64,000 bases of DNA, taken from a virus. The DNA is taken from positions 5,868 to 69,867 of the IMG/VR virus record IMGVR_UViG_3300031643_000106; one strand, written 5' to 3'. The notes beneath the pieces are model-generated. The model searched no databases. It saw nothing but the letters and a program-made list of their open reading frames with translations, and was not told the origin of the DNA. The stretch's first letter is position 1. Each line of letters starts with the position of its first letter. Of this stretch, positions 20,677-55,768 are shown piece by piece. The position numbers and the translations under genes are program-made.

Positions 20677-20735
20677 TGGGCGGTGGGATGCGAAAGCATC
20701 CACCCTAAGCACCGCCCACCAACTACTTAGGGGGT
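20677..20735 (+). ncRNA. Pseudoknot leader, copy A
   Basis: P1 TGGGCGGTG/CACCGCCCA; inner hairpin GGATGC-GAAA-GCATCC; CCCTAAG (20703-09) is complementary to CTTAGGG (20726-32), which overlaps the SD. Confidence 0.7.
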
Positions 20736-20743
20736 TGGTTCAT

Positions 20744-21127
20744 GTGGAAGTACAGAGAATACCCGGACAGTCTAATTTATGTAACAAGAATGGTGTCCTT
20801 AATGTTCCTCGTTATCTTAGAGTACCATACTGTTTGTTGAATTCAGAATCATTCTTGTTGTTATCGCCGTTGGCGGTTAAAATATATTTCATGATTCTAC
20901 GACAATGGAAAACAAATGAATCTGACAAACCAGTTGAAATATCTATTGCAAAGATGAGAACATATTGCCCAAGTCCGACGAAGCCAGATAGTTTGATTGG
21001 ACGCAACCAAATCGCCGATGCTATAAAACAGTTAATGAAATATGGTTTTATACATAAAGTTAATCAATATAAGAAATGCAATAAGTATTATATTGAGCAA
21101 AGACGATTCACTGGCGAATACCGTTAG
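20744..21127 (+). CDS. Winged helix-turn-helix protein (replication-initiator N-terminal-like), paralog A
   Basis: YLRVPYCLLNSESF..LSPLAVKIY ... AIKQLMKYGFI; GTG start after the SD. Confidence 0.6.
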   Translation: MEVQRIPGQSNLCNKNGVLNVPRYLRVPYCLLNSESFLLLSPLAVKIYFMILRQWKTNESDKPVEISIAKMRTYCPSPTKPDSLIGRNQIADAIKQLMKYGFIHKVNQYKKCNKYYIEQRRFTGEYR

Positions 21128-21147
21128 ATGGTATATTATATAAAACA

Positions 21148-21281
21148 GTATCAAGTTGATACTCAGAAACCTAACATAGAACCGCATTTCATGGTCGAGC
21201 CTAGTATCAGATTGGTACTAGGTGGTGAGAAAAGTAAATAGGAATATCAATTAGGTACTAGACCTAGTATCAGATTGATAC
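21148..21281. repeat. Four imperfect 15-bp palindromic repeats, RTATCA-N3-WGRTAC
   Basis: gtatcaagttgatac 21148, gtatcagattggtac 21204, atatcaattaggtac 21244, gtatcagattgatac 21267. Confidence 0.8.
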
Positions 21282-21287
21282 CAGAAA

Positions 21288-23708
21288 ATGCCAGAACTCA
21301 GGTTAGACAATTTTACTCCCGGAATGAAAAGGGATAGGAGCCTGCGAGAAGCAGGTATGCTATCACTACGCACGTTAAAGAATATGGAGATTATCTATAC
21401 TGATGGTCGCTTGCGTATGCGGAAAGGCTACACACGGTGGAACACAGGACAGATAGCTGCACCTGCTACGCAACTATTCTGGTATCAGCCTATTGATACA
21501 TCAGAAGACGGCAATCTCTTTGGTATTTATAATGGCTACTGGTATCAAATCAGCGAGACAAGCGCACACAAGCAACTTAGTTCGGTAGCAGCAACAGCAC
21601 GGCGTCCTATTATTCAGTTTGGAAACAGGGTATTCTTCGGCACTGATGAAGGATGGCGGTGGACAGATAGCGATTTGCTTATCGGGTCTACATACTCGTA
21701 TGATGCTGGATTAAGCAAGCCAACAAGCGCACCGACTATTACACTACGAGCCGCGATTGGGCATTGGTCTAGCGTACATAACAAAATGGATACCTCTTCA
21801 TTATTAAATGCTACAACCACTCGCAAGTTGGCAATGGCATTTACTGTGCCTGCTGATACAGAATGGACGTTTAGCCATATAAGGGTATTGATGTATTTAG
21901 TAGCAGATGCCACTGTCGTTGGTACGATGTGGGCGGAGATAAGGGAAAATGATGGTGGTGAACCAGAAGCAGATGCAGTAAGTAATGGCACATCGTTTAA
22001 TGTTGCCGTATCTAGTGTAGATACAAGTGCAGAATGGATTGATTTTGTGTTGACTGATGTAGTAACGCTAACGGCAGGACAGTATTGGATTGTAATAGAT
22101 ACAGATGATGATTACAGAGACAACTTCTATGACGTTTCTAATTACGTTGCTATCAGGGGCGATGCGCTTAACGGACATCCTGTACTAGAAACAAATTCTT
22201 TGCGCTTGATTGCTGGCGTTCCTAATGTATGGACTGGGACTACAATGGAGTTTAATTTCCAGATAGGCGGAATTTTTTCAGAAGACACAGGGACACAATG
22301 GTTTGATTATGTGTATACATATGTAGACACTACCTATGATATAGAGTCACGACCTAGCGAAAACACTAGAATTGAGACTGAATCATATAAACGAGCAACG
22401 CAATTAGATGGATATACGACACCACCAGCTACCGAGCGTGTAGATAAAATACGATTATACCGTAGAAAAGTAGATAATTTTGATACAGAAGAGACATCTA
22501 TTACTGATACATATAAATTCGTAGGTGAACAGGATTATCCTTATGCCTCAGCCCCACATTTAACAGATGCCGTGCTTACAGATTTTCTTGGTGCAGACCT
22601 ACAGACTACTGATCATTACAAGTATTCCGATACAGATGATAGTGGAGACAAGATACGGACGGCAGCATTATTGCCTCATGTTGCTGTTATATGGAAGAAT
22701 AGAGTCTGGTTTGCTGAGGCAAATTCTAATATCCTATATTTCAGTAAAAAACTAGAGCAAGACGGAGCAACAAATTTAGCTAATACTGCTGTGCCTGATT
22801 ATTTCCCGCTAGAAAATAAACTCGAAATGCCTGTCCCAACAGGGATAACTGCATTGGCTACATTAGGCAGCGATTTGCTAGTAGTATACTTTGCTGATGA
22901 AAGTATCTATACAATACGTGGTGGCGATGGTTCGCTGAATCCACCACCGGATATAAATATGCAGGAAGTAGTTGCCGAACATGGTATAATAGCACCTGCG
23001 GCAGTAGGTAGCATGAAGGGTAGATTATATTATCTTTCAAGAGATGGCTTTTACGAGTTCACAGGGTCGCCATTAGCACCGGGCGACATAGTAAGTGAGG
23101 ATAACCAGAGTATATTCGATGCTATTGAGACGACTTATTTAGATGACTCTATTCTTGCCGTATTTGGAAACGAGCTATGGTTGCTGGTAGATGCAGATAA
23201 CGATGGGGCGTTAGAAACAATCTTAATACAGGACATGCAAAGATATATACCCATGCGCGGTCTATACGACCGTCCGTGGCGCATGTATGAATATGACACC
23301 ACGCTAAATGATATTATTGTGAGAAAGACAGGTGCAACGACGCGTACGCTACTTGCCGCTGACGCCGAAAGCAATTATATATTAGAGTTAGAGGATGGAC
23401 TTACTGACAATGGTAAAGCTATAGTAGGTATAGCAGAAACGCATGACCTTATTGTGCGTAATCAGGTGCATCTAAATGAGGTAGAGATAGATGCTAATTT
23501 CTCAACTAATGTTGCTCCATTCTTGGTAACAGTAATCGACAATGCTGGTGTGGAATATAATTTTTCAATAAGTCCCGGAAACATATATGACCCGCGTAGT
23601 TATAGAACCGGATGTAGAGTAACAAGCCTTAATCGTATTCGCATGAAGCTACAACATAGGGCTGTAGCGGCTGATGAATTACTGGCATTATCAGTAAAGT
23701 ATACATAA
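21288..23708 (+). CDS. Tail nozzle / DNA-stabilisation-like virion protein (beta-propeller-like)
   Basis: 806 aa; LKNM...GRLRMRKG N-terminus; WKNRVWFA, LYFSK, GIIAP..V and LYYLSRDGFYEF patterns of podoviral tail proteins. Confidence 0.6.
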   Translation: MPELRLDNFTPGMKRDRSLREAGMLSLRTLKNMEIIYTDGRLRMRKGYTRWNTGQIAAPATQLFWYQPIDTSEDGNLFGIYNGYWYQISETSAHKQLSSVAATARRPIIQFGNRVFFGTDEGWRWTDSDLLIGSTYSYDAGLSKPTSAPTITLRAAIGHWSSVHNKMDTSSLLNATTTRKLAMAFTVPADTEWTFSHIRVLMYLVADATVVGTMWAEIRENDGGEPEADAVSNGTSFNVAVSSVDTSAEWIDFVLTDVVTLTAGQYWIVIDTDDDYRDNFYDVSNYVAIRGDALNGHPVLETNSLRLIAGVPNVWTGTTMEFNFQIGGIFSEDTGTQWFDYVYTYVDTTYDIESRPSENTRIETESYKRATQLDGYTTPPATERVDKIRLYRRKVDNFDTEETSITDTYKFVGEQDYPYASAPHLTDAVLTDFLGADLQTTDHYKYSDTDDSGDKIRTAALLPHVAVIWKNRVWFAEANSNILYFSKKLEQDGATNLANTAVPDYFPLENKLEMPVPTGITALATLGSDLLVVYFADESIYTIRGGDGSLNPPPDINMQEVVAEHGIIAPAAVGSMKGRLYYLSRDGFYEFTGSPLAPGDIVSEDNQSIFDAIETTYLDDSILAVFGNELWLLVDADNDGALETILIQDMQRYIPMRGLYDRPWRMYEYDTTLNDIIVRKTGATTRTLLAADAESNYILELEDGLTDNGKAIVGIAETHDLIVRNQVHLNEVEIDANFSTNVAPFLVTVIDNAGVEYNFSISPGNIYDPRSYRTGCRVTSLNRIRMKLQHRAVAADELLALSVKYT

Positions 23709-24003
23709 ATGGGGGTTGGATGTATATATCCTGCCTTTACCCATTCATTTATAGGAGAATAGGAAATGGCTTTACAAGAATTATATGAGAGTTATGTGGG
23801 TGAAAATACCTTCTGGATGAAAGTCGCAGGGGCTTGTATGGTAGCTGCAATCAATATCGCCGCCTTAGAAGGCACTGGCCCTGCTACATTAGTTAGTCCA
23901 CCTATTTTGTTTTTTGATGTCATAACTCCTTTTGCTGGGTTTATATCTATAAAACCAGCTAAGTCGTTGAACTCAAAAAAACCTTACAAAAAATGGTGAC
24001 GAG

Positions 24004-24521: not shown

Positions 24522-24524
24522 GAG

Positions 24525-31393: not shown

Positions 31394-31398
31394 AGATA

Positions 31399-42163: not shown

Positions 42164-42455
42164 ACCCCCATTTCTACTGGTAAGCCCACCTAAATTTTCT
42201 TTTTTATTTTTTTCAGCTACCGTTTTTGTATCTCCACTATTATCATGGGTGGGTCTTTGAGTCGTCCAACAATACGTAATACCAAAATGCCAAAAGAAAA
42301 CTCCGATAACGTGGGCATCTTTCCCGCTACCTAGATAGCCATAATTACGATATATCTTAAAATCCCTCATAAACACCGATGATATGCGATGACGCATAAA
42401 CAATATAATCACCCCCATTTCTACTGGTAAGCCCACCCTCATATCTACGGGTAAG
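42164..42455. repeat. 27-bp perfect direct repeat plus a degenerate third copy
   Basis: acccccatttctactggtaagcccacc at 42164-42190 and 42411-42437; catatctacgggtaag at 42440-42455. Confidence 0.85.
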
Positions 42456-42479
42456 GTTCGGTCATAGTGTCCAATATGG

Positions 42480-43046
42480 TCACGTACAATTATCATGCAA
42501 AAATGAATGACAACGCCCACATAATAATACAACATCACTAAATATATTCTCTTCCCCGTACCTGTCGTAGTGTACATGGTGCAATTCCAAACATTTGTCA
42601 CATCCACATACATAGCATCTGGGATCATCGTCTAATAGCATGTGCTTTAATACCACTTGGTGTTTTCTTTCTTTATTGTTTAGCTTCCTTGCAGGTCTTG
42701 GGGCGGTGGGGATTAGCATTTTAATAAGCCTTAGTTGTCCATGTGTTAATGATCCTATCTTCGGACAACTTACATCAACGGCAAGCTTCATCATGGACTT
42801 ATCACCGCTTGTGTTCCAAACAAAATCCGCACTACGCAACTCTCGTATCGCACGAATCGTGCTAGAGTGTGGCAAACATGAGATTGATTCCATTTGGTCA
42901 TGTGAAATAGTAAAGGTATCGTCATGGCTTGGGTTCTCCCGATGATATACCCATAGTGAAATCAACAGAACTTTTGCTATGTTGGTAAGTTTGTTATATT
43001 TATTTGAGTTAAGTATTTGACATGGGATACAAATATTCTCTTCCAT
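42480..43046 (-). CDS. Winged-HTH paralog D fused to an HNH endonuclease domain
   Basis: ICIPCQILNSNKYNKLTNIAK...AIRELRSADFV, then CYVC..LELHHVHY...LLCGRCH..LH. Confidence 0.75.
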   Translation of the reverse strand: MEENICIPCQILNSNKYNKLTNIAKVLLISLWVYHRENPSHDDTFTISHDQMESISCLPHSSTIRAIRELRSADFVWNTSGDKSMMKLAVDVSCPKIGSLTHGQLRLIKMLIPTAPRPARKLNNKERKHQVVLKHMLLDDDPRCYVCGCDKCLELHHVHYDRYGEENIFSDVVLLCGRCHSFLHDNCT

Positions 43047-43050
43047 TTCT

Positions 43051-43121
43051 TCACCTCTGGTGTTGTAAGGTGGTGATGGTCGCGAACACCATGACTACGG
43101 GAATAGCCAACACGACCACCA
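43051..43121 (-). ncRNA. Pseudoknot leader, copy D
   Basis: On the - strand: P1 TGGTGGTCGTG/CGCGACCATCA; hairpin TGGCTA-TTCCCG-TAGTCA; TGGTGTT pairs with AACACCA directly before the SD GAGGTGA. Confidence 0.7.
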
Positions 43122-43203
43122 CAATAGTTTTAGTGATGCAGACAGGTCATGACTCCGTGTCTACACTACAATTATACTACACTACCAGAGGTAAAGTAAA
43201 GCA

Positions 43204-43338
43204 TTATATCTTGCGTCCACGACCTGTCTTGCTGGTAGTCTTGCAACCACCACGTCCACGATTCAATCGCTTGCCTCCCCCTGAATCGTCGTGCTTGGGT
43301 ACACCTTTCTTGGTTTTCTTAGTCTTTCTTCTGGTCAT
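43204..43338 (-). CDS. Small basic Gly/Lys/Arg-rich protein
   Basis: Translated by hand: MTRRKTKKTKKGVPKHDDSGGGKRLNRGRGGC...; SD GGAGGG. Confidence 0.45.
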   Translation of the reverse strand: MTRRKTKKTKKGVPKHDDSGGGKRLNRGRGGCKTTSKTGRGRKI

Positions 43339-43588
43339 TGCTATCCCTCCTACGTTGGTTATGACGTACATCATTCGTGGGGTACGTTATCCATCCTCTC
43401 CTTTTAACTGAGCCAGAGCTTTGACTGAAAACTCCACCTCCGTAAACACCTTTATTCGCCAATCTCCATGCCGGATAGCTAATTCGCTTACTTGTTCCTC
43501 TATTTCTTTCTCAGACGAAGACTCCAGTTCGAGCCTCCACTCCTTTGCTCCGATACGGTCACCGACATTTCTCATCACGAAATACATT

Positions 43589-44191
43589 TTATAAGCCATC
43601 CCGCCCCTCCTCTCTCAGTATTATCTCCACTGCCTCAAGAAATCCAGACACTTCGTAATCTGCGCTCGTCTTTGGTCTGCGATCCCACGAATGTTTCTTA
43701 GCTATCTCAGGATCGCCATTCACCGCTATGTGAAACTCCGTCTCAGGATACCACAGGTGGATTGTCTTGCACCCCGTAGCTGCGCCTGCCTCGATGTCTG
43801 TCGGCAGATCGCCAATCATCCAGTATTCAACCTCGTCTACCGCCAGCATGTTCTGTATATTTTGTTGCCACTTAATCAACTCGGTCTTTCCAATTACGGC
43901 ATCGCCAAAGACAACGCCAATATCTACCATGCTACTGAGAGCGGCATCAACCCTGTATAGAATTGCGTCATGAATAGCAACAAGCTCCTCTTTGGTTATC
44001 ACCCCCTTTGGTACACAGTTCTGCGTGGTTACACAGAATACAGGAACAGCCGCATCTCTAAGCCGCTTCAATCCCTCAAGTACGCCGGTAAAAAACTGCA
44101 CCTGATTTGGTGCAGTAATGTACCAATAGCCCTGATAACCAGTGCGTATCAAGGTGTCGTCTCTGTCTACGAATACAACCTTCTGCTTCAC
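43589..44191 (-). CDS. Second GmhB-like HAD IIIA phosphatase (no Zn motif)
   Basis: VFVDRDDTLI, TTQ and MIGDLPTDIEAG..GC.TI; GTG start after AGGAGGTG. Confidence 0.75.
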   Translation of the reverse strand: MKQKVVFVDRDDTLIRTGYQGYWYITAPNQVQFFTGVLEGLKRLRDAAVPVFCVTTQNCVPKGVITKEELVAIHDAILYRVDAALSSMVDIGVVFGDAVIGKTELIKWQQNIQNMLAVDEVEYWMIGDLPTDIEAGAATGCKTIHLWYPETEFHIAVNGDPEIAKKHSWDRRPKTSADYEVSGFLEAVEIILREEGRDGL

Positions 44192-44476
44192 GTCACACCT
44201 CCTTTCATGGCAACAAACACAATGCAATGTGGACTTTCCCTACGCCGATATGTAATACAGCATAGTGGAGTCTTATCTCGAAGAAAGACTCTCCGTATCC
44301 TATCGCCATAGCCAATCTCCAAAAGATAACTTCCATTGCATTTGTGCCACGATAAGGCGCATATAATCGCCGTAGGCTAATCATCTTATCCCTCCTCTCA
44401 TTCCTACATAGCGGTGCGGATTCTTATAATCCTTGCCACCGCTTTATTTTGAAAATCCCATCTCACACCTCCCTGC

Positions 44477-44752
44477 TTACCAGCTATTATAAAACCGAAT
44501 TGTTTTGACATGCTTGGGTATTGCCTTTACATCTATTTCATACCCCTCGGATTCAATACCTCCCCATTCTCGGCAATGTTCCTCTAAGTCAATAACCACA
44601 CCAGAGGCATCCGGCTCTTCACCATCGAAGAACGCGTCTACCTCGTCTGGTATTTCTAGGTTTGCCGCTACACAAGTATCGTATACCGCCTTCATCTTTT
44701 TCCATTCTTCATCTGGCGGCACTATCCCTCTTACAAATGTTGACATTGACAT
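44477..44752 (-). CDS. Hypothetical phage protein
   Basis: Compact acidic ORF coupled to the upstream kinase gene. Confidence 0.6.
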   Translation of the reverse strand: MSMSTFVRGIVPPDEEWKKMKAVYDTCVAANLEIPDEVDAFFDGEEPDASGVVIDLEEHCREWGGIESEGYEIDVKAIPKHVKTIRFYNSW

Positions 44753-45670
44753 CTACATCACCTCCCCGCACAGTTCGTCCACCGTGCAATGCGCTATGCC
44801 TTCCTTCTGCACTACTATTGCGCCTGCTTTGTTCGCTAGTTCTGCTGCTGACCGCACATCTTCGGTACGCAAATATTCCATTGTGAAAACGGATAATACC
44901 GTATCTCCTGCGCCAGGCGTTTCCACAGCTTTTACATTGTGTCCATCTAAGGAATAGACCTGCCCTGCTGAATAAACATCAAGCCCGGATGAACCATGAG
45001 TTATTATTCTAGCCTTGCTTGAACGTAGAACATCTTTTAGCACCCCACCCCTAGAGTTAAATTCTTCCCCATTACATTGAAAGACCGTACAGCCAAAGAA
45101 ATGACTGACATCCTTCGCTTTGGAATTGACAAACGTAGGCACATCAAACTCATTGCACACCTTTATTATCGCTTCCGCCTGATGTGGCTGTAATACGCCC
45201 TTGTTGTAGTCAGACAGGACAACAGCGTCATATTTGCGAACATCATCCATAAAACAACCAAGCAGTTCTTCGTCCGCTGACTGAGATGTTGACGTGCTTT
45301 CGCAATCTACCCTTACAATGTGACACCCATTCCCAATTATTCTTAATTTGTGTGGTGTATTGTACCTCCCGTCTTGGTGATAATGGCCGACTATGCCTTT
45401 GTTATGACATTCTACCATTATATCTTTTGCGGCTTTGTCATATCCGCCTACGGTATGAAACCACACATGCGCCCCAAGTCTGCGTAACTGCACAGCAACA
45501 TTCCCTGCGCCACCAAGATTGATAACCTTCTCAGGATTCTCTACCACTGGAACAGGTGCTTCGGGGTTAATCCGTGTCACGCTACCACGCCACCACTCGT
45601 CTTGTATGAAGTCACCAACAACAGCTATCTTCAGCTTGCTATACGCCTCCCGTAGTACATCAGCTTTCAT
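44753..45670 (-). CDS. hldA: Heptose-7-phosphate kinase (HldE/RfaE domain I, HldA-type, PfkB family)
   Basis: VVGDFIQD..W.GSVTRINPEAPVPV, GGAGNVA, LSDYNKGVL and GAGDTV. Confidence 0.9.
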   Translation of the reverse strand: MKADVLREAYSKLKIAVVGDFIQDEWWRGSVTRINPEAPVPVVENPEKVINLGGAGNVAVQLRRLGAHVWFHTVGGYDKAAKDIMVECHNKGIVGHYHQDGRYNTPHKLRIIGNGCHIVRVDCESTSTSQSADEELLGCFMDDVRKYDAVVLSDYNKGVLQPHQAEAIIKVCNEFDVPTFVNSKAKDVSHFFGCTVFQCNGEEFNSRGGVLKDVLRSSKARIITHGSSGLDVYSAGQVYSLDGHNVKAVETPGAGDTVLSVFTMEYLRTEDVRSAAELANKAGAIVVQKEGIAHCTVDELCGEVM

Positions 45671-46526
45671 ATTATCCTCCTAAAATGGGATGTCACTTTC
45701 ACCTTCCGGCTTATCATCCCATGTAACCGGACAGGTAAAGCTACGGCAGTTGAATAGCTCTGCCGCTATGGTAGTGATGGCATTGCAAACAATACTAGCA
45801 TCAATCTTATCTTGTCTCATCTTGCACGTATTAACGTATTCCCAAAAACAATTGTCTGCATCCACCAAACACAACTTCATCATCTCTACATCCTTCATTT
45901 CTCTACCTCCCCTGTGCATACCAGTTCGCCACGCTTGCAGGTGCGTGTGACTTTCACTGAACGAAATTTTCTCGACCTGATTATTTCCAGTTCCAGTTTT
46001 TGTAACTCATATATCTTTTCCGCATCAGACATTTTCTCTATTGCTAATTTCGCATCGTTTCTCTCATCTTCTTCCGTCTGTCCTCTCATTATTCTTCCTC
46101 CTCCCTGTTGCAGCTATTCCTATCACCACCAACACCAGACCAGCCTGCCATGATAATAGCAGGTTAATTATGTGGTTCATGCTCACGCTCCTATAGTAAT
46201 ACTAACATCCACGCGGACTTACAGAGCGGGCATTTGCCCTCCCATATATCGTTCACGTCCGATGTTAGCTCCATCAGATGTCCACAAGAACACCTGAACT
46301 CCATTGTATCCTTTTCAACAGCTACCGCCATCTTCGTCACGCTCCTTTTGTTCACTTTCTACCAAGATTAGCTTCCATTTATTGCCACAATAATCACATA
46401 CACCTGCCCATGTATTTTCATCATTAGCTGGTTCAAGTTCTGCACCGTTAAGACAGGTACAATCAATACAAATCTTATTATCCTCTAGCCACTCTATGTC
46501 ATCGAGTCCCTCTTTCCACGTCAGCC

Positions 46527-47063
46527 TCATCTTACCACCTCCTTCGTTAAGCTAAACTCTGGTTGTTCCTGCTCGCCGCGTATCACATGCCCAAACGCTT
46601 TCCATGATAGCTTCCGCGCCATCGTCTCAAAATTCTTTGTGCGGTTTTTCTCAGTCCGTGATTTTTGCCTGCGTTTAGCATTACGACGCACACGACCACG
46701 CTCGTCTATAATACCTACCCATTTGGGAAGCATGGATGTGTCAACGCAGTCTGAGACGATGTAATACAGGAAATCATAATCATAACTAATCTTAAATTTC
46801 CAGAGCTTGGAACCAATAACCAGACCATCTTCCATTACATAAGGCTTAACACCGCGCCAACCTCGCGGCTTGAAGTCGGAACGCAAATCAGAAGTAGTAT
46901 CTTTAGCTTCAACGATATAAACACCGCCGTCTGCCTTCATTCCTACTGCATCAGGTATACCGCAGAAATGCCATTGAACCTCTGTGGCAAATACGACACA
47001 GCCTGTTTTTTGCACCCACCGCAAGGCTACTTGCTTTAGTAGCTTATGCTTGTGGTTCTCCAT
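46527..47063 (-). CDS. PD-(D/E)XK nuclease-like protein (MmcB-like)
   Basis: EV..IPDAVG...VYIVEAK.T.SDLRSD; YYIV; LPKWVGII. Confidence 0.6.
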   Translation of the reverse strand: MENHKHKLLKQVALRWVQKTGCVVFATEVQWHFCGIPDAVGMKADGGVYIVEAKDTTSDLRSDFKPRGWRGVKPYVMEDGLVIGSKLWKFKISYDYDFLYYIVSDCVDTSMLPKWVGIIDERGRVRRNAKRRQKSRTEKNRTKNFETMARKLSWKAFGHVIRGEQEQPEFSLTKEVVR

Positions 47064-47099
47064 TAAGCACCCCCTCTCTGTATAATTTCTGCTTTGATG

Positions 47100-47546
47100 T
47101 TATCTATCTTGCGTTGCCACTTTCTGTTGTAGCTGTAACGACCTGAGAAACTTTAGCCCCGTTAGGTATCGTGCATCAGTGCATCGCTTCTTTTGGTGGT
47201 GATCTTCAAGTCGCTCTACTAGCTTGTCGATTGTTATGCCCCCTTTCACCGCATGTTCGGCAAGCACAGATTTTACATGGGTGTTCCACTCTACCTTGCG
47301 TTGTTCCTCTATCTGCTCACGCTTGAACCCCCTTGCCTTCTGCCTGAACATCGAGCCTAAGTTCAATAGTTGCAACTTCTGTTTCTCCCGCTCCGCATTT
47401 TCCGCCAAGCACTGCTTCATTACCGCCAATGCCGCAGGATAGCCCTTGTTTTCCCCAAAAGTATAAATAGCATCTTCGTTAAATTTCTTGTGCTTGAAAG
47501 TTAATTGTGCTATTTCTTGCCTTGCTTTTCTCTCTGCATCGTTCAT
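47100..47546 (-). CDS. Hypothetical helical protein directly after the iteron-like array
   Basis: SD AAGGGG and ATG at 47546. Confidence 0.55.
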   Translation of the reverse strand: MNDAERKARQEIAQLTFKHKKFNEDAIYTFGENKGYPAALAVMKQCLAENAEREKQKLQLLNLGSMFRQKARGFKREQIEEQRKVEWNTHVKSVLAEHAVKGGITIDKLVERLEDHHQKKRCTDARYLTGLKFLRSLQLQQKVATQDR

Positions 47547-47561
47547 GTTTGCCCCCTTATT

Positions 47562-47698
47562 GTTACACTTTTGCACCTAATTATTGTTACACTTTTGCTA
47601 CCAATTGCATGAAATCACCATGAATTAGTTACACTTTTGCTACTAATTTCGGGTGCATTTTTGCTACTAATTATTCGATTCCTTGGTTACACTTTTGC
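47562..47698. repeat. Iteron-like array of GTTACACTTTTGC (candidate replication origin)
   Basis: Exact copies at 47562, 47586, 47628 and 47686; degenerate copy at 47652; AT-rich spacers. Confidence 0.8.
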
Positions 47699-48074
47699 TA
47701 CTCTTATTAATATTATTACCATAGGGGTGTCCTTCGCCAGTTAGCCATTCAAGGTTAGGTTTATATTTAGAAGGTATATGCTTGCCCCCTTTATCAATAA
47801 TTATAAACCCTGCGTTATCTAGTTGCTTGAGGCAAGCACTGATTCGCCTGTTATCATACCCCGTTATCTCTTTAATCTCTTCGTATGTAAACGGATAGTA
47901 GTCCTTTATTTTTCCGTTCATGCGCGTAAACTTGGTTAGCAAAACAACATACAACCATCTAGCATGTGTTGATAATTTGTTTAGCTCTGGAGATTGCGTA
48001 GTATAGTGCGGAATTGCAGTAAACGGGGCTTGTAGCTTCTCATAGTAATCGACCCTGCTTTTCCTCTTAGCCAT
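47667..48074 (-). CDS. Winged-HTH replication-initiator-like protein, paralog B
   Basis: FTAIPHYTTQSPELNKLSTHARWLY...FTYEEIKEITG....ISACLKQLDNAGFI; the gene ends inside the repeat array. Confidence 0.65.
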   Translation of the reverse strand: MAKRKSRVDYYEKLQAPFTAIPHYTTQSPELNKLSTHARWLYVVLLTKFTRMNGKIKDYYPFTYEEIKEITGYDNRRISACLKQLDNAGFIIIDKGGKHIPSKYKPNLEWLTGEGHPYGNNINKSSKSVTKESNN

Positions 48075-48864
48075 GACTACCACCGCCTAACGGTAGCTCT
48101 GGCTGTGTTAGCTCAATCTTGATACGCTCTTTCGATATGTCGCAATATTCCTCTGATATATCTATCCCTATATACCGGCGACCTGTTTTGATACTGGCAA
48201 CAGGCGTTGTTCCACTACCAACGAATGGGTCTAATACAATCTCGTCTGGGTATGAATATAATTTTATTATTCGCGCCGGAATTTGGATTGGGAAAGGGGC
48301 AACATGCCCAATAGCAGATGCCTTTTCAGGTGCTATAGACCATACGCTGTTTCGCCATGATTTGAACTCAAATGGTGTCAAGTAATATCCGCTGCGCTTC
48401 TCTCTTTTACCGTATTTTCTTAATACAATAATATACTCATGTTGATCAGCCAGTGCGGGATCAGATGGGTTACAATAACTGCCCCATGCCGTGCCAATCT
48501 GCCCGTAGCCTTTATGCCAGATTATTTCCCCAAGCGGTTCGCATTTCCCAACAGACCATTCATATATTTTAGCTACATTTGTTAGGTACGGTCGACGTTT
48601 TGTGTTTGCCATATTAATTATTAGCTTACACCCGGGCTTGAGGATTCTTAATGCCTCATTCCACACTTGCCATAGATATTCATGGGCTTTATGGAAATTC
48701 TGTGGATGCCAGAGTTCCTCCCAAAACCTAATTACACCGGGATAAGGTGGACTTGTAACAACCAAATCCACAGACTCATCTGGCATTTGCGGCATAACCT
48801 CAAGGTTATCACCACATATAATTTTATTCTCAAAATCTTCTGGAAATTTTAGGTCGGTATTCAT
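48067..48864 (-). CDS. Beta-class N4-C/N6-A DNA methyltransferase
   Basis: VDLVVTSPPY (motif IV) precedes VLDPFVGSGTT (motif I); H.APFP. Confidence 0.92.
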   Translation of the reverse strand: MNTDLKFPEDFENKIICGDNLEVMPQMPDESVDLVVTSPPYPGVIRFWEELWHPQNFHKAHEYLWQVWNEALRILKPGCKLIINMANTKRRPYLTNVAKIYEWSVGKCEPLGEIIWHKGYGQIGTAWGSYCNPSDPALADQHEYIIVLRKYGKREKRSGYYLTPFEFKSWRNSVWSIAPEKASAIGHVAPFPIQIPARIIKLYSYPDEIVLDPFVGSGTTPVASIKTGRRYIGIDISEEYCDISKERIKIELTQPELPLGGGSHG

Positions 48865-48869
48865 AATAA

Positions 48870-48930
48870 CCTCCGGTGAATGAGGTAGGGCGGCGTTTCA
48901 CCGAGCGATACGGGATCGCCACACCGCCCA
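48870..48930 (-). ncRNA. Pseudoknot leader, copy B
   Basis: On the - strand: P1 GGGCGGTGT/ACGCCGCCC; hairpin GCGAT-CCCGT-ATCGC; CGGTGAA pairs with TTCACCG next to the SD GGAGGT. Confidence 0.7.
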
Positions 48931-48979
48931 CCAAGTTTGTCTGCGTCGCGGTAAGCCAGTGTACGGCTGGCTTACTATC

Positions 48980-49007
48980 ATTATATCACAACCCCCTGTA
49001 AAGTCAA
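48980..49007 (-). promoter_or_regulatory. Sigma70-type promoter for the MTase/wHTH-B cassette
   Basis: TTGACT-16-TATAAT with TGn extension. Confidence 0.7.
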
Positions 49008-49704
49008 GGCTTTTGTGCTAGGCGATACCACGGTGAAAAATCTCCGAGTGTTCGGCTTTTTGCTATCTTTTTCTCTGCCAATCCACGTCGCACCAACGCA
49101 TCCAAAGTAGCATTGCTTTCGTTTAGTAACCACTGCATCTGCCATCCAATCTCTAGCTTCCCCAACGCTCTTTCCATTGCCGGTGATAGTTTCATTTATC
49201 TCCTTTACTTGAAATCTTCTTCCTTCCAACCGCTGTTTATCTCAATTATATCTTTCATGCGGGTAGTTGCGTTATCGGCTATGCGTTTATAATTCTTTAC
49301 CTCCATTTCCAAGACGCTTATTGCGTTTTCGTATAACGCAATTAACTTCGTTGAGTTATCATTAACTCTGCTTTCAAAGTAGTGCAGAACCAACAGCAGG
49401 ACTATTATAATAATCAACATCACTATTATACATATCAGTGTTGCTTCAAATGGGTTAAGCATGTCGCCTCCTTTGTGTGTATTACATCGCTACGTCCTCC
49501 AACAACGTAACAACAGTACGCCATGATCGCACATGGATACCCTACAAAGCACACGATCATAGCCGCTATACCATACAGGTGTTCATACCATGTCATATCA
49601 ACGCCTCCTTTCTTTGTGCTTGTCTTTCTCATACGATAGCCATATACTACCAAGAGAGAAGCACATAATAAACAATACGAATATGGTAGCCGCAACTGTT
49701 TTCA

Positions 49705-50781
49705 TTATTCCTCCTTGTCGCTGAGTTCTTTGGCTATGATAATCAGTTCGGTGGTGATAGACTCCGTAGCTCTGGACAGTACCATGATGCGCCTGATAAT
49801 CTCCGCATAGGTAGCCTTATGCCCTATTGCCTCCAGCATTAAGCCAACATCAGGGAAGCCATAGCCTGTCTCTAGCGTCTTCACACCTGCGTTGCTACCG
49901 TATGTCTTTAGTAGGTTGAAGAATCCGTTCTGCCCTACGCCTTTATTAGCACTACGCACCAACGCCGCTACGCCTGCCATGTTAGCACATGCCTGACTCG
50001 TACCCTCTGCTACGGTAAACCTGTGGCGCATCCAGAAGGTAACTGGCTGTGCGCTACCCGGTGCAACGGCGGTTATGTTTTCTCCGTAGTCAGACATGCC
50101 CCACCGTGCGCCAGTAGGGTTAGTACCACCTATTGCCAGTGCGCCACTGGATTCCGCAGGGTACATCATTGACGCCTTGCCACGATTGCCTGATGCCGCC
50201 AGTACAATACAGCCCTTGCTGATGGCGTATGCTATAGCGTCCACTACGGCTGTTGACTGGTATGAATAGCCAACACAGATAGTTATAACATCAGCCTTCA
50301 TGTCAGCGGCACGTTCTATGCCGTCTGCTAATCTCGATGCAGGGCAATTACCGTATCTATCTATGACAACAATAGGCATTAACATAGCATCAGGAGCAAC
50401 GCCTACCATGCCAAAGCCGTCGCACTCAGCAGCTATCGTGCCTGCTAAGTATGTTCCATGCCTGTATTTATCACGCGTAATGGCGTTGTTATCTACGAAA
50501 TTCCAGCCCGGCACAATCTTTGGGTGCTGACCTGACGTTATATCACGCGTCACTACGTCATACAAGCGGTCGTTGTAGGCATCGCTGTTGGCACTGGACA
50601 ATGGAACATTGCCAGACCAGCCTAAATCTTTATGAGAGCCGTCAACCCCACTATCTACTACAGCCACGACCACGCCTGCGCCCGTGGAATAACGCCAAGC
50701 GGCAGGTACGTTTAACAACTTTAGATTCCAACATGAACCGAACATCTCATCCGTAATCTTCGCCGCATCAGCCATTATCAT
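49705..50781 (-). CDS. Subtilisin-like S8 serine protease
   Basis: Catalytic triad motifs VAVVDSG, HGTYLAG and GTSQA; oxyanion AASGN. No signal peptide or prodomain visible. Confidence 0.9.
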   Translation of the reverse strand: MIMADAAKITDEMFGSCWNLKLLNVPAAWRYSTGAGVVVAVVDSGVDGSHKDLGWSGNVPLSSANSDAYNDRLYDVVTRDITSGQHPKIVPGWNFVDNNAITRDKYRHGTYLAGTIAAECDGFGMVGVAPDAMLMPIVVIDRYGNCPASRLADGIERAADMKADVITICVGYSYQSTAVVDAIAYAISKGCIVLAASGNRGKASMMYPAESSGALAIGGTNPTGARWGMSDYGENITAVAPGSAQPVTFWMRHRFTVAEGTSQACANMAGVAALVRSANKGVGQNGFFNLLKTYGSNAGVKTLETGYGFPDVGLMLEAIGHKATYAEIIRRIMVLSRATESITTELIIIAKELSDKEE

Positions 50782-51203
50782 CCTCCCTCTTGGCGTCTTG
50801 CGCCTTGATTATATCATCCAACTCTTGCCGTGTCTTAAAGATACCCTCCTTTGCAAGTTCAACGAGTGGTTTAACCATCCGCCTAGCGTCCAGGTATGCA
50901 GTTGCCATGCCGTGATAATATCTTTCCTTCCTCGACCCTGCTACAACCATGTCTTCCATTCGACCGTGGCTGTAGTCAATTTCGTCACTAAGCCTCGTCA
51001 TGATATTCTTGACTAGCAAGGATATATCTTTCTTCACGACTACATCTTTCTCACACGCTGCACATGAGGTTAGAAATAGTCCCTCGCGTCCCAACTTGTC
51101 CTTAGTAGCCAGTGATAAGCGTATAAATGCCGCACTGTCTACTTCAAGTTCCACGACATATTTCCCTTCATCCTCTTGAAAACTTATCTTAAACCACTGG
51201 TCA

Positions 51204-51494
51204 TCAGCCATTAGCCACCGTACCCCCTTTCTCATCCTGTATCTTGATTTCGTCAGCTAAATTCTGACGACACTTGAAGATACCCTTCTTCTTATATTTT
51301 AATCGCAGGTCAGCCATCCGCTTGTGCCATAGCACGACCTCCTCTAAGTCGAAGCGCAACCGTCCACCGATGTATGTGTGTGGCATACCTTCTTTCACCC
51401 AATTTCTGATAGTGTTCCTATGCACTTGCATCATCAACGCAAGCCACGTTGTATCCAATACTTTAGGATTATCTAGCTTCTTGAATTTTGCCAT
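51204..51494 (-). CDS. Excisionase-like HTH DNA-binding protein
   Basis: LA.MMQVHRNTIRNWVKEGMP...GGRLRFDLEEV..W. Confidence 0.7.
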   Translation of the reverse strand: MAKFKKLDNPKVLDTTWLALMMQVHRNTIRNWVKEGMPHTYIGGRLRFDLEEVVLWHKRMADLRLKYKKKGIFKCRQNLADEIKIQDEKGGTVANG

Positions 51495-51505
51495 GCTGTA
51501 CCTCC

Positions 51506-52510
51506 TCATTCTGGTGGGTTATGGGTCTTACCTGTGCCAAACAAATCTTCCTTCGGTTCGGCAGGAACAGCCTTAGACCACTCTTCGTATGACGCTTTCA
51601 TGTTTTCCATAGTGGATTCATCATTCAACGCACGATTGACATTCAATGTACGCTGACCTGTTGTGCCAAAGCTGGATTGCAGGAAGCTAACTAACTCCTT
51701 GCTATCAATGCCCATTTTGGTAGCCAATTGCCCTACCATGCCATCGTATTGCTTCTTGACTTCGGGTGCGATTACTTCTGCTTTTGGCGTAGCTTTCTTT
51801 GCTGGCTTGGGACGCGCTGATTTGTTGTACCCCATTTCTTTAGTACGCTTGGGGTCAAATGACTTACCTCCTGTGCGGTAGTCGTCCATCCACTTCTGCA
51901 TCAGGTCTTTTGGCAACAACGCCAGTATCACATTACGCATAGCCTTTGATTCTGCTATACTCATGGCGTGTTCTTTCTCGATTACGCCGCCGCGTGTAGC
52001 CAACATCAGTTTTTCCCCATACCATCTACCTATAGTTATATTTGTGTGATGGTCGTGGGCTTCTGCATAGGCCATCCAAATCAACTCTCCGCCTTCTTCT
52101 TTCAATTCAGGACACTTGTCAACAGTAACAGACATCTGCCCATACGCGCGCATTGCCACAAGTGCGCCCTGATAACCAACGCCAGTGACATGAACATGCT
52201 TCTTCCCTTTCTTGCGGTACGAACATCCTTTCCCATAGTTCATGACATCGCACAAATGCCCCCAGTCTACTTTGCCATTCTCGGACGCAAAGGGCTTGTT
52301 ATAGATCACCGACGCATCATAATGTCCTGACAACTGGTCGGTAATTTCCTTCGTCAAGTCACGATCCAAGATGCGGAAGACAACCGCCTTCTCAGTAGCA
52401 TCCATATCTATTTTTTCTATTAAATCGTCAAGGATGCTGTCCTTCTGTTCTACTACCATTCCTTTGACCACCGCTGCTTCTACCTTATCTTTCTCTTGCT
52501 TCTCAGCCAT
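51506..52510 (-). CDS. Hypothetical protein, possibly ssDNA-annealing/recombination
   Basis: AESKAMRNVIL motif and a low-complexity C-terminal tail resemble phage annealing proteins; family not certain. Confidence 0.35.
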   Translation of the reverse strand: MAEKQEKDKVEAAVVKGMVVEQKDSILDDLIEKIDMDATEKAVVFRILDRDLTKEITDQLSGHYDASVIYNKPFASENGKVDWGHLCDVMNYGKGCSYRKKGKKHVHVTGVGYQGALVAMRAYGQMSVTVDKCPELKEEGGELIWMAYAEAHDHHTNITIGRWYGEKLMLATRGGVIEKEHAMSIAESKAMRNVILALLPKDLMQKWMDDYRTGGKSFDPKRTKEMGYNKSARPKPAKKATPKAEVIAPEVKKQYDGMVGQLATKMGIDSKELVSFLQSSFGTTGQRTLNVNRALNDESTMENMKASYEEWSKAVPAEPKEDLFGTGKTHNPPE

Positions 52511-52945
52511 GTTATTCCTCCTTCTTAAATCCTTTCACTACCAAACATTTTACACACTGCCGGTAGCATTTGTTGCGAAAATACCTATTCTTCCATTCGT
52601 GTTCTTCGTTGTTCAGAGTACAGTCGGACACTGTTGAGTATGTGGTGTTCGCCATCCAACGGAACTTCTTTCCACACATTAAACACTTGGCGACCGCTCC
52701 CCCTAATAGCTCGTACTTTGTTTCCCCACAGTACGGACATACGATCTTAGCCGTCATCGAGTGTTCTATCATGCCACTACCTCCAAATACAGCATGTGGA
52801 CGCTTGACATGCTTCCATCGGACATTTCTACTACCAGCCAAGTACAAGGCTTCCCCTCTTTGACAATCGTGCCTACTTGGTCATAGTATTTAGACCACTT
52901 ATTCAGGATTTTCACCTTGTCTCCTGCTTTCATCCTGCACCTCCC

Positions 52946-53203
52946 TTAATGATACTCTGGAATAAAGCATCCCAAAGTCACAACTGCGGTCGGTTTGACG
53001 CTGTGCAAACTCATATATATTTCACGCTTTTTGAGTTTAGCACCACGCAAATGCCAACACTGCTTGGCATACTGACCGTTGTAGTGATTCATCCTGCACC
53101 CGCGACAGAACAATTGTTTGTCGCTGTCTGCTACCTTGCGCCGCTTATCCTTTTCCCATACAGCTATTACATCGTCTTTGTTTCTCACAGCCCCCACCTC
53201 CAT
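52946..53203 (-). CDS. Small Cys-rich protein (paralog 1)
   Basis: FCRGCRMNHYNG....CWHL..A. Confidence 0.55.
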   Translation of the reverse strand: MEVGAVRNKDDVIAVWEKDKRRKVADSDKQLFCRGCRMNHYNGQYAKQCWHLRGAKLKKREIYMSLHSVKPTAVVTLGCFIPEYH

Positions 53204-53262
53204 ATAAGAATCGCTATCGTTACAGCTACCACTATTGTTGATATTGCGTCCATCATGCCCTC

Positions 53263-53496
53263 CTATCGTGTTATATGTGGGTCAACCATTACTGTCTGCC
53301 GCTCATGCTGACAATCTAATACTCGCTCTGCCTTTTGTTTCCACGGCGGTTTCTGCCATAGCCCCACTTTCTTTTTCCATACCACGCGTGCTGTCTTGAG
53401 ATGCCAGCACTCCTTGATGCCATGTGGATTGTTGCCGTTGTAGAAGTTCTCGGTACACTTGACGCAGTATTTACGCCGCTTATCATAGTTCTTCAC
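53263..53496 (-). CDS. Small Cys-rich protein (paralog 2)
   Basis: YCVKCTENFYNG...CWHL..A. Confidence 0.6.
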   Translation of the reverse strand: MKNYDKRRKYCVKCTENFYNGNNPHGIKECWHLKTARVVWKKKVGLWQKPPWKQKAERVLDCQHERQTVMVDPHITR

Positions 53497-54986
53497 ATCA
53501 TACCTCCATCGTTAGTTGTGCCGTCTCTGCCGCTATCCTCTGTCTCGCTATCTCATAGTATTATTCGTCATCAACTGGTGAATATACCTGTAATAACTGC
53601 GGCGTCAGCGGTTTGTTGAACGTCAGCAATGTCAAATAAACTTTGCCTGTAAATAATATCTTTATTCTCTCAAGTATTGAGAATTTCCAGCAACTAGACA
53701 CCGCGCCACTGTCGTCACCATGCTTATATGCTGGTAAAGTTAAATATTCGTCCTGACTTTCGGCATAGTTACAATTACTTCCCTTAAAATCTATTGGTTT
53801 CATCGGTTTTACTCCCTTCGTATTCTTTTCTTTTGTACCATTCTTTTGATCGTCCGGGGAATGGCGAATGCTCTGCAACAAGGTCAACTGGTGTTGGAAA
53901 TTCAGCATCATGTCCACGTAGGATATGAATAACTCTATAGTAGGCGTCTCTTTTGCCCAATCGACGCATATTCCATAAGTCATATCCCTTTTTCCCTTTC
54001 CAGCCATCAGCCGAAGAATATTCGCCATGATATTCTTTGTTGGTTTCTTGGGCTATCAATTCGTGCAGCACATCAATCAAGCTGCCCATTATACACCTCC
54101 TGTACTCTTGTGTGTCCGTAGCTTCCCCACCGATAGCCAAAGCAGACCAGCGATACATAAGACAACCCCGCTACGCATAGCCACATCGGGCATACTTCTT
54201 TCTCTCTTTGCTATAGCCAGATGACTTTCCAACATGCCGATCTTCTTTGTAGATTCAGCATAGCGTTTTTCCACTGCGCGGCAATTAACTTTTCCGTTGC
54301 CCTTTGTATCCCGCATATACTTTGGTGCGGTAAAGTACACAGCCAAGATAGCTACTGCGGTTGCTATTAAGATTATTCGCTGACATTTATTCATCTTTCA
54401 CCTCCGTTCATAACTACCGATTGCGGAAAAGATTGGCTTCCGATTACGGAAATGATAGCCTGTTTAATCTCTTCCGATTTCGGTAGTTGGTATGTTTTTA
54501 TTTCTTTTGCAAACCGTTGCCGTTATTGGCTTTGTGTGACCAGTGCAAATAAAGATTAAACCTCTTGTAAAAGCCTTCGTCTATAAGAATGGTGGCTGTT
54601 GGGTCTATCTTTCCCTTTCTAGCCACGAAGGTTCTAGGTAATACTTATTGCTGTTAAGCTCTAACCCGCCATGTTTGTATTCAATAAACTCTACTGCCGC
54701 CGCTCCTGATCCATCCATCTTCTCATTCCCCTTGCTCAGCCTCCCACCTTGCCGCTTCCCGTGCTGAAACCATGCCGGTAATTACCCCGCACCGCTTATC
54801 TATACGCGAGGCAATTCCACCGACTGTTTTCAGTTCATCCAAGCCCGTTGCATCTGGATTGTCAATATGCTTCCAGATGCTATCTATGCTTTGGCATAGC
54901 TGATCTGCGAGCTTAGCCATGTCAAGCTTTAGCAATTCTTTCTCCTGCTTTATACGCTGCTCAAGTACCATCTTCTCATTCCCCTT

Positions 54987-55184
54987 TCAACGCTTACAGC
55001 GACACCCTCTCTTGGTAGCATGTTTCAGCATCATGCAGTATTTGTCCTCCGCAACCGCCACGTCGCCACGCTCCGACCTCCCTTTAGGCCAGTTATAGTA
55101 GTTATCTCTACAGCCAGCGCACACCGTCTCTCGAAACTCATTACGCTTCTTTAGCATCTTTGCTTTTTCTTTCTTATCCATCAT
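54987..55184 (-). CDS. Small Cys-rich protein (paralog 3)
   Basis: VCAGCRDNYYN...CMML..A; SD GGAGGTG. Confidence 0.55.
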   Translation of the reverse strand: MMDKKEKAKMLKKRNEFRETVCAGCRDNYYNWPKGRSERGDVAVAEDKYCMMLKHATKRGCRCKR

Positions 55185-55357
55185 ACACCTCCGTTTCGTC
55201 ACGCTATTTGGCGGATGTAACACGCCTATTTGGCGGACGTATAATCTATTGTTTCGTTGAAACCATAAACCCGCATGGTTGTTGGCTTTGCGGCACATAA
55301 ATTAGATGTAAACCTTTGTCAGTTTCATACGTCTCTTACTCTGTAGGCTCTGGGGCT

Positions 55358-55687
55358 TCATGCTGTGCCATCCATGTACTTACTAATCATCTGGTAGGTA
55401 GTTCCCCTTTGCCATCTACCACCCGGTTCATAGACAACAACAAATCCATCCTTTCTTAATTCCTTAACGCCGCGCTGTACTGTTCTTAGCGGCAACCCTG
55501 ATTCGTCTACGAGTTCTTTCTGTGTCCACGTTACCTTGCCTGTAGCGGTAGCACCTGTCCGTATATACCTTAATCCCATAGTCAAATAGACTATTCTGGA
55601 ATAGGCTTTCAGCATACGCCATTTCTTAGATTGTAGTGTTGTTTCTGGGATAGCCACATAGTATCCATTGATCCTGTGGTCTGCCAT
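55358..55687 (-). CDS. Winged-HTH protein, paralog C
   Basis: YVAIPETTLQSKKWRML...VY...WTQKELVDESGL..RTVQRGVKEL..DGFV. Confidence 0.7.
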   Translation of the reverse strand: MADHRINGYYVAIPETTLQSKKWRMLKAYSRIVYLTMGLRYIRTGATATGKVTWTQKELVDESGLPLRTVQRGVKELRKDGFVVVYEPGGRWQRGTTYQMISKYMDGTA

Positions 55688-55691
55688 CTTG

Positions 55692-55768
55692 CACCTCCGA
55701 TTCATGTAAGGTGGTAGTGGCTGCGATGAATCGTGATCAACATGGCGTTAATCAGACACAGCCACCAC
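55692..55768 (-). ncRNA. Pseudoknot leader, copy C
   Basis: On the - strand: P1 GTGGTGGCTGTG/CGCAGCCACTAC; hairpin TGATTAAC-GCCAT-GTTGATCA; CGATTCAT pairs with ATGAATCG next to the SD GGAGGTG. Confidence 0.75.

Follow-up and report, generated by a model that had tools for sequence, protein, structure and literature searches.

Four structured RNA leaders, here called A to D, precede small winged helix-turn-helix (wHTH) gene cassettes in a 64,000-nt stretch of viral DNA (the window). The window comprises bases 5868-69867 of IMG/VR record IMGVR_UViG_3300031643_000106, a 69,867-bp single-contig virus, and near-identical DNA is present in salt-marsh metagenome runs. An earlier note on this sequence had described four pseudoknotted leaders, and all four were found at the sites it gave: A at 20677-20738 (+), B at 43122-43052 (-), C at 48929-48869 (-) and D at 55768-55692 (-), followed by start codons GTG 20744, ATG 43046, ATG 48864 and ATG 55687, respectively. 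The gene context that it reported was also recovered. Leaders A, B and D head wHTH paralogues sharing 21-24% identity; behind C lies a methylase gene, with which a wHTH gene shares an overlap of 17 nt.

Each leader has the same order of elements: the 5' strand of helix P1 (P1a), a P2 hairpin, a segment S lying in a 3'-side loop, the 3' strand of P1 (P1b), a strand complementary to the Shine-Dalgarno sequence (SD) and therefore termed anti-SD (P3a), 1-2 nt, the complement of S (S'), a strand carrying the SD (P3b), 4-5 nt and the start codon. S and S' are exact complements in all four copies, as had been claimed (CCCTAAG/CTTAGGG, TGGTGTT/AACACCA, CGGTGAA/TTCACCG and CGATTCAT/ATGAATCG for A to D), and their pairing gives the pseudoknot helix (PK). 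The order of elements proposed in the earlier note therefore stood, except that its 7-9-nt "C/A-rich linker" is not a passive spacer. This linker is the anti-SD strand, which pairs with the SD to give a third helix, P3, that had been overlooked and whose loop is S'. The paired strands of P3 are CACCUU and GAGGUG in B and D, ACCUC and GAGGU in C, and an ACCAAC-type and a GUUGGU-type strand in A. The D open reading frame (ORF) starts at ATG 55687 behind GGAGG, rather than at an ATG within S'. The leaders and their parts are as follows.

20677-20746 (+): leader A, whole, to GTG 20744 (from folding and the pairing script)
20677-20685, 20686-20701, 20703-20709, 20710-20718 (+): A, P1a, P2 (GAAA loop), S and P1b (folding)
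20719-20724, 20726-20732, 20733-20738 (+): A, P3a, S' and P3b (folding)
43111-43122 (-): B, P1 5' strand (folding)
43092-43109 (-): B, P2 hairpin (folding)
43085-43091 (-): B, S, TGGTGTT, 3'-side internal loop and 5' strand of the pseudoknot
43073-43084 (-): B, P1 3' strand (folding)
43067-43072 (-): B, P3a, anti-SD CACCTT (folding)
43058-43064 (-): B, S', AACACCA, within the P3 loop
43052-43057 (-): B, P3b, the SD GAGGTG, with ATG at 43044-43046
48862-48929 (-): leader C, whole (folding)
48921-48929, 48904-48920, 48897-48903, 48888-48896 (-): C, P1a, P2, S and P1b
48882-48886, 48874-48880, 48869-48873, 48862-48864 (-): C, P3a, S', P3b/SD and ATG
55685-55768 (-): leader D, whole (72.4 bits with covariance model R1, described below)
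55757-55768, 55734-55754, 55726-55733, 55714-55725 (-): D, P1a, P2, S and P1b
55708-55713, 55698-55705, 55692-55697, 55685-55687 (-): D, P3a, S', P3b/SD and ATG

When each copy was folded alone, P1 enclosing P2 was followed by a second hairpin, and fold z-scores against dinucleotide shuffles were -4.3, -3.3, -2.4 and -3.6 for A, B, C and D. A strict descriptor (P1 of at least 9 bp, pseudoknot of at least 7 Watson-Crick pairs, P3 of at least 5 bp and a start codon nearby) returned five sites in the 69,867-bp genome, namely the four copies and one site within a coding region, compared with a mean of 0.77 (sd 1.05, maximum 4) on 30 dinucleotide shuffles. Separately, a possible divergent fifth element, which may be a chance occurrence, lies at window positions 61747-61654 (-). 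It has a 9-bp P1 with 2 G-U pairs and is without P3; its S, ACATAAC, abuts P1b, and the complement GTTATGT covers an ATG behind GGAGG that opens a 180-amino-acid product without a Pfam match.

Relatives of the leaders were reached through the protein encoded behind D. A large protein collection contains 8 homologues of wHTH D, and DNA was obtained by one metagenome scan with wHTH D, which gave 18 loci. The D orthologues nearest in sequence, P0002-P0007, are 73-83% identical to it. A leader lies upstream of the D orthologue in 17 of these; the eighteenth, L052, has only a partial D match, and no leader was seen there. Removal of duplicates left 13 distinct D-orthologue leaders, which together with a second cassette of locus L037, placed before a second paralogue, make 14 metagenome leaders and, with A to D, a set of 18. 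Because L046 and L047 have the same pseudoknot region, 17 of the 18 are distinct there. Thirteen of the 18 leaders were obtained through wHTH D homology, and only A, B, C and L037:1750-1841 are independent of that choice. All 18 nevertheless reached the identical minimum-free-energy architecture independently, and in all 18 the leader travels with wHTH genes or with the methylase-wHTH pair, in agreement with the earlier note.

A covariance model (CM), R1, was trained on 10 leaders. It found the untrained second L037 cassette (L037:1750-1841) at 39.4 bits, E 2e-5, but copy A and copy C both escaped it, even with the cut-off relaxed to E <= 10. In alignment A6, whose 16 sequences were aligned by the CM and are thus fitted to the model, 93.2% of P1, P2 and P3 cells paired versus 77.8% in shuffles, with slid controls at 41-50%, and 16 of 23 pairs showed changes on both sides; the observed values were reached by 0 of 500 shuffles. 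Since neither MAFFT (alignments A1 and A4) nor the CM put the pseudoknot in register, it was tallied by our own scripts, which counted 134 Watson-Crick pairs, 2 G-U and 0 A-C. Among the 17 distinct leaders there were 16 distinct S sequences, and all four Watson-Crick pair types occurred at each of 7 positions. Complementarity between an S and its cognate tail was 5-10 nt (median 8), whereas 272 non-cognate pairings gave mostly 4-5 nt. In P1 the ratio of G-U to A-C was 29:2, and the S to S' spacing ranged from 16 to 26 bp. The excess of G-U over A-C and the variable spacing indicate selection on the sense RNA and argue against a DNA palindrome. Contigs of four DNA runs had zero letter differences inside three leaders and so gave no fine-scale covariation. 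The earlier proposal of a structured 5' leader family backed by covariation is upheld by these aligned relatives, the CM and the double-sided changes, and we regard it as almost certain that the structured, covarying leader RNA is real.

Among close relatives the pseudoknot varied most. Between D and L040 identity was 0.92 in P1, 0.75 in P2, 1.0 in P3 and 0.25 in PK, and in 7 of the 8 leader pairs closest in P1 the pseudoknot was less conserved than P2. This near-randomised pseudoknot may reflect neutral drift of the only sequence-free helix or selection for distinct locks, the sample being too small to separate the two. Two individual loci are recorded here in their own right. L038:5806-5885 contains two complements of S, one in the P3 loop and one of 9 nt between the SD and the AUG. 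L048:1543-1625, a weak R1 match (20.9 bits, E 0.06) that has a P2 and a GC-rich P1, was rejected as a family member because no S:S' pairing was seen by eye; its internal loop contains the palindrome TTCCGGAA.

The family was absent from Rfam 15, in keeping with the earlier note, which did not recognise it. The full window searched at the gathering threshold returned only Hammerhead_II at 59577-59639, and a search at E <= 10 of positions 42900-56000 and 20600-20800 and of loci L037, L039, L045 and L051 gave no leader match. Full-text literature searches found no description of the leader. That this is a structured RNA family lacking from the RNA catalogue is well supported. The single Rfam hit is a full-length type II hammerhead ribozyme (RF02276) on the (-) strand in the early-gene region, scoring 51.6 bits against a gathering score of 37.

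Searches beyond the metagenome scan added no members. The pattern ACCACCTTACAN{7,8}AGGTG matched 33 stretches in IMG/VR, all unrelated coding DNA and rejected. The pattern GTGGTGGN{35,60}CCACCTTN{8,12}GAGGTG matched 39 stretches in IMG/VR and at least 120 in GTDB genomes, of which 80 were taken as loci for filtering with R1. Among the matches listed after R1 filtering, only weak ones appeared (16.6-18.4 bits): two in coding DNA (L078 and L138), which were also rejected, and L086 at 16.9 bits. No relatives were found in IMG/VR with wHTH alignment A2, wHTH D alone or D-family alignment A3, nor in GTDB representative genomes with A3. A methylase-guided fetch gave one locus, L034, at 43% identity, whose upstream region is without the motif. 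In 80 IMG/VR loci with T5orf172-type nuclease genes there was no convincing copy, with the limit that other leader designs would escape the descriptor; the 27 (+) strand descriptor matches in these 448 kb at loose thresholds correspond to the background level.

The geometry of the 18 leaders places the SD inside paired RNA. With script-chosen helix boundaries, 0-nt junctions were found from S to P1b in 16 of 18, from S' to P3b in 18 of 18 and from P1b to P3a in 11 of 18. The spacer from P3a to S' was 1-2 nt in 15 leaders, and the end of P3b lay 4-5 nt before the start codon in 17. P3 was present in all 18, and PK and P3 together made 11-14 bp in every leader (P1, 8-17 bp). The SD core straddles the PK/P3 junction, the pseudoknot often takes in the first G or Gs of the SD, and the folded state leaves no SD base unpaired. 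The deep-groove loop rule of H-type pseudoknots is the classical basis for a short spacer spanning a helix. By this rule, a 1-2-nt spacer over a 7-8-bp helix, with a flush junction opposite, fits PK stacking on P3. Unlike in a strand-displacement switch, S' is kept to the P3 loop and does not overlap the stem. Duplex energies were -2.4 to -15.7 kcal/mol for PK and +1.6 to -5.9 kcal/mol for P3; P1 and P2 together span 15-26 bp, broken by the 3'-side loop. Even when the pseudoknot was left out and only nested pairs were modelled, the probability that the SD core is unpaired was 0.02 in B, 0.18 in D and 0.21 in C, compared with a median of 0.50 over 56 SD-bearing phage ORFs.

The genes behind the leaders are listed below.

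20744-21127 (+): wHTH paralogue A, 127 amino acids, no Pfam or PHROG match
42480-43046 (-): gene B, 188 amino acids, N-terminal wHTH and C-terminal HNH nuclease domain (from Pfam, PHROG and alignment with HNH-bearing relatives)
48067-48864 (-): N6/N4 DNA methylase behind leader C (Pfam N6_N4_Mtase, 8.5e-38)
47667-48083 (-): wHTH paralogue overlapping the methylase stop
55358-55687 (-): wHTH D, 109 amino acids, with relatives carrying HNH or T5orf172/MUG113 domains

In PHROGs, the wHTH proteins matched O-like and DnaD-like phage initiators over the N-terminal wHTH of the latter. The predicted structure of D (predicted local distance difference test score 74) is closest to the N-terminal domains of plasmid RepA-type initiators (4pql, 4pt7 and 5kbj; E 2e-4, template-modelling score 0.6). 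The HNH domain of gene B scored 0.0022 with Pfam HNH, which is below the curated cut-off, and 8.5e-6 with the PHROG HNH endonuclease profile; no nuclease domain was found by Pfam or PHROG in A, D or the wHTH protein behind C. In a homologue search B returned only itself and D returned none at longer lengths, whereas an exhaustive profile search did yield fused forms. It gave 127 D-family clusters, of which 10 were scanned, chosen by length (144-214 amino acids). Seven scanned relatives of 181-210 amino acids have an N-terminal wHTH (P0015, P0020, P0024, P0028, P0035, P0021 and P0026), joined in five to MUG113/T5orf172 and in two to HNH. MUG113 and T5orf172 are domains that we take to belong to the GIY-YIG superfamily, and a YFIGN...VKIG motif is visible in the alignment of the fused relatives. 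It is a hallmark of free-standing homing endonucleases that a single DNA-binding module is found joined to nucleases of two unrelated families. D, A and the wHTH protein behind C look like nuclease-less members. These fusions and the HNH domain in B tie the element to the leaders of phage homing-endonuclease genes that sequester the ribosome-binding site (RBS).

All leaders but A have a TTGACA-type promoter, situated about 150 nt before the start and followed by a hairpin, at the predicted 5' end of the transcript, and by a spacer with few Gs; near A there is no sigma-70-like promoter. The wHTH genes are each followed by their own iteron-like direct repeats, none related to S or the pseudoknot. 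The corresponding features are:

43171-43200 (-): cassette B promoter, TTTACT-18-TATAAT (10/12)
43138-43164 (-): 5'-terminal hairpin of the B transcript (5'-end position predicted)
48980-49007 (-): cassette C promoter, TTGACT-16-TATAAT with TG (11/12)
48952-48974 (-): 5'-terminal hairpin of the C transcript (read from sequence)
55807-55834 (-): cassette D promoter, TTGACA-16-TATAAT (12/12)
55786-55800 (-): 5'-terminal hairpin of D, GAGGG-UAGCU-CCCUC, kept in D orthologues
21147-21282: four 17-nt palindromic repeats after A
47559-47702: five 20-nt direct repeats after the wHTH gene behind C
42164-42461: three 27-nt repeats after B
55204-55241: two 16-nt repeats after D

The promoters and 5' hairpins that the earlier note assigned to B and C held up, but the "weak -35" it gave D did not, the promoter at 55834-55807 being a 12/12 consensus match. 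Conserved across the D orthologues are the sequence around the promoter (AATAGCCC-TTGACA), the spacer and the 5' hairpin, whose loop reads U(A/C)GCU. The two cassettes of L037 (L037:1690-1760 and 2940-2990) have identical promoter, hairpin and spacer and wholly different P1, P2 and pseudoknot. No sigma-70-like promoter was found inside the leaders. The repeats behind the genes and the pseudoknot are unrelated in sequence, and a connection between them was rejected.

Contigs from other salt-marsh samples diverge at the cassette edges, at 55698 (run X3), 43211-43254 and 48205-48240 (low-depth single contigs), and three contig joints, also in low-depth single contigs, skip 241-876 bp between 43345 and 46887. 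In one low-depth contig, the one joined at 55698 (run X3), a different leader with a B-like P1b and a different S' runs into the D gene, the joint falling precisely between S' and the SD, and its four visible S bases pair with its S'. Since the contigs break at cassette edges and the leader swap falls at S'/SD, the cassettes look modular.

Because the folded state pairs the whole SD, we read the leader as a translational lock, that is as repression rather than activation. We consider it somewhat better than an even bet that the leader is a cis-acting RNA that locks the RBS and keeps the downstream wHTH and nuclease-type genes low. Each cassette but A would be transcribed from its own sigma-70-type promoter, and at the 5' end of the transcript a hairpin would come first, ahead of a spacer with few Gs. 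The long hairpin, P1 around P2, would then offer the 6-9-nt loop S on its 3' side. In the short hairpin P3 that comes next, a CACCUU-like anti-SD strand would pair with a GGAGGUG-like SD, and the P3 loop S' is the exact complement of S. S:S' and P3 would abut with no spacer and make 11-14 bp in total. The whole SD would thereby lie inside the PK/P3 stack, 4-5 nt before the start codon. With PK and P3 forming together, translation of the wHTH or wHTH-nuclease genes would be low despite strong promoters. We infer the joint formation of PK and P3, the low translation and that low translation is the purpose.

Several observations weigh against the lock. The flush-junction counts lean towards it, the helix boundaries having been picked by a script that maximises pairing. 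With P1 of 8-17 bp against about 13 bp of PK and P3, and 0-nt linkers, the longest P1 may bar PK and P3 from coexisting without fraying, which would favour a switch. A cruder window, from -14 to -5, puts B, C and D no higher than ranks 15-25 among the 56 ORFs; P3 alone is modest, so strong repression would rest on the pseudoknot, which the energy models used cannot score. In leader A, P3b lacks a canonical SD. Of the four window genes, B alone carries a nuclease domain, and the gene behind C is a methylase. The family was seen in only 18 metagenome loci, 13 of them distinct, all via one protein family, and among the listed runs with near-identical DNA none were RNA runs.

The closest described systems are the RBS-sequestering hairpins of T-even homing-endonuclease genes. 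According to PMC2988022, I-TevI, I-TevII, I-TevIII, segB and Aeh1 mobE have such leader hairpins, in which stable RNA structure hides an SD placed about 8 nt ahead of the AUG, as it does here. The genes behind them are selfish phage DNA-binding or nuclease genes, as those here probably are, and the purpose presumed in both cases is to limit translation. The T-even leaders are simple hairpins opened by embedded late promoters (PMC2988022), whereas here a pseudoknot locks the SD hairpin, an own sigma-70-type promoter lies upstream, no internal sigma-70-like promoter was seen and most genes lack a nuclease domain.

A second resemblance is to the L5-L13 contact of cobalamin riboswitches. In PMC5028336, the loop of the RBS hairpin of env8HyCbl kisses a nearby upstream loop, docking sequesters the RBS, and perfect pairing brings expression near background with or without ligand. 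The S:S' pairing of all 18 leaders is of this kind, and by analogy with the perfect-contact variant of env8HyCbl a perfect 6-9-bp S:S' should form constitutively. The leaders differ in having no four-way-junction aptamer and no Rfam cobalamin match, their upstream domain being a plain hairpin. They also differ in that S' pairs upstream with an internal loop instead of a hairpin loop, and in that the 6-9 bp are perfect and without the conserved bulged purines reported there to give the riboswitch contact its ligand dependence (PMC5028336).

The pseudoknot might in addition serve as an address. Its hypervariable helix would then be under diversifying selection, giving each cassette its own lock, keeping co-resident cassettes orthogonal and making each lock responsive, for opening or closing, to a matching trans-acting RNA that could come from the host, a rival phage or the phage itself. 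We regard this as a speculative and rather unlikely extension of the lock.

Among the alternatives to a lock is an activator or switch of the IncI/IncB repZ type, which we consider improbable. Either PK or P3 could then form, but not both. Pairing of S with S' would pull the anti-SD strand out along P1, release the SD and so turn translation on, and a trans factor masking S, such as an antisense RNA, would turn it off. The strain that the 16-17-bp P1 variants put on PK/P3 coexistence favours such a switch, as do the resemblance of wHTH D to plasmid initiator N-terminal domains, the iteron-like repeats after each gene, and a pseudoknot that is far more variable than P1, P2 and P3 in close leaders, as a specificity determinant would be. 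The IncI-type pseudoknot core is a conserved rCGCC/rGGCG, and no conserved core exists here, with 16 distinct S among 17 leaders. The topology of the known systems is shared: an upstream stem-loop domain of IncI-alpha/IncB/IncL/M repZ/repA pairs with the sequence immediately before the SD that serves an initiator-like gene (PMC8053102; titles in PMC10724649), and S' lies directly 5' of the SD, like in ColIb-P9 (PMC8053102). The analogy with ColIb-P9 repZ drawn in the earlier note is sound to that extent and fails in the rest, as no conserved leader ORF, antisense promoter or pseudoknot core was found. There is no leader peptide of the repY/repB type, and no leader ORF has a conserved start, frame or stop in 17 leaders; and S, with which S' pairs, sits in an internal loop and not at the tip of a hairpin. 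A promoter scan, which is a weak test, gave no conserved antisense sigma-70-like promoter, only 9-10/12 matches near +108 to +118 in 4 of 17 leaders and none in A-D. S' is confined to the P3 loop, abuts P3b in 18 of 18 and has a 1-2-nt 5' spacer, which fits stacking and not displacement. The pseudoknot often pairs the first SD G or Gs, and the cover that the pairing and P3 give to the SD suggests repression, not activation.

Leaders bound by proteins are also well known, and those of T4 gp32 and of ribosomal proteins are autoregulatory. Here the encoded wHTH, or another phage or host protein, would bind the fold as an operator for translational autoregulation, a proposal whose chances we rate as low as those of the repZ-type switch. 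The constant company of wHTH genes fits it, and P1 identity of 92% between D and L040, versus 53% amino-acid identity of the proteins, hints at a sequence-specific contact. However, the wHTH fold is of a type that binds double-stranded DNA, the DNA repeats that follow each wHTH gene are particular to it and resemble neither S nor P1, one leader architecture is kept across paralogues at 21-24% identity, and leader C heads a methylase gene.

An element for RNase III-type processing or stability, like the early leaders of T7 and lambda, would use P1/P2 with its asymmetric internal loop as a site of cleavage or a block to decay. The 15-26 bp of P1 and P2 interrupted by a 3'-side loop, and the 5'-terminal hairpin that is also present, suit such a role, but the exact match of S to the P3 loop would be left unexplained, and we find it quite improbable. 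A riboswitch, among the functions suggested in the earlier note, or a self-cleaving ribozyme is very improbable. A pseudoknotted leader beside the SD, with a type II hammerhead in the same early region, could suggest one. Against it, zero unpaired nucleotides are conserved and no pocket is apparent, P2 loops (GAAA to 9-nt) and junctions vary, A has 0-nt junctions and no 5'-side junction, the pseudoknot is perfectly paired and free of irregularities, and Rfam gave no match at E <= 10. The lack of conserved unpaired nucleotides, the variable loops and the regular pseudoknot together make either assignment unlikely. Least probable of all is that S and S' are half-sites of a palindromic DNA operator for the cognate wHTH: protein-DNA co-evolution would likewise give sequences that differ between paralogues yet are perfectly inverted, but the half-sites are spaced 16 to 26 bp apart, non-Watson-Crick pairs are G-U and not A-C (29:2 in P1, 2:0 in the pseudoknot), four interlocked inverted repeats fit one RNA fold, and the separate downstream repeats are the likely DNA sites.

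The topology of the leader is unusual in that the loop of one hairpin pairs with an internal loop in the hairpin next to it, so that three helices form a closed ring around the RBS. Through this element, homing-endonuclease families are connected with initiator-like wHTH proteins and their iteron-like repeats. Transplanting the device could be feasible, as its promoters and SD seem suited to E. coli, judging from the promoter consensus matches. If the address reading is true, the principle of plasmid incompatibility loops would be applied to the translation of mobile phage genes. If the lock model is true, phages would control selfish DNA-binding and nuclease genes by a compact RNA device that is easily re-addressed.

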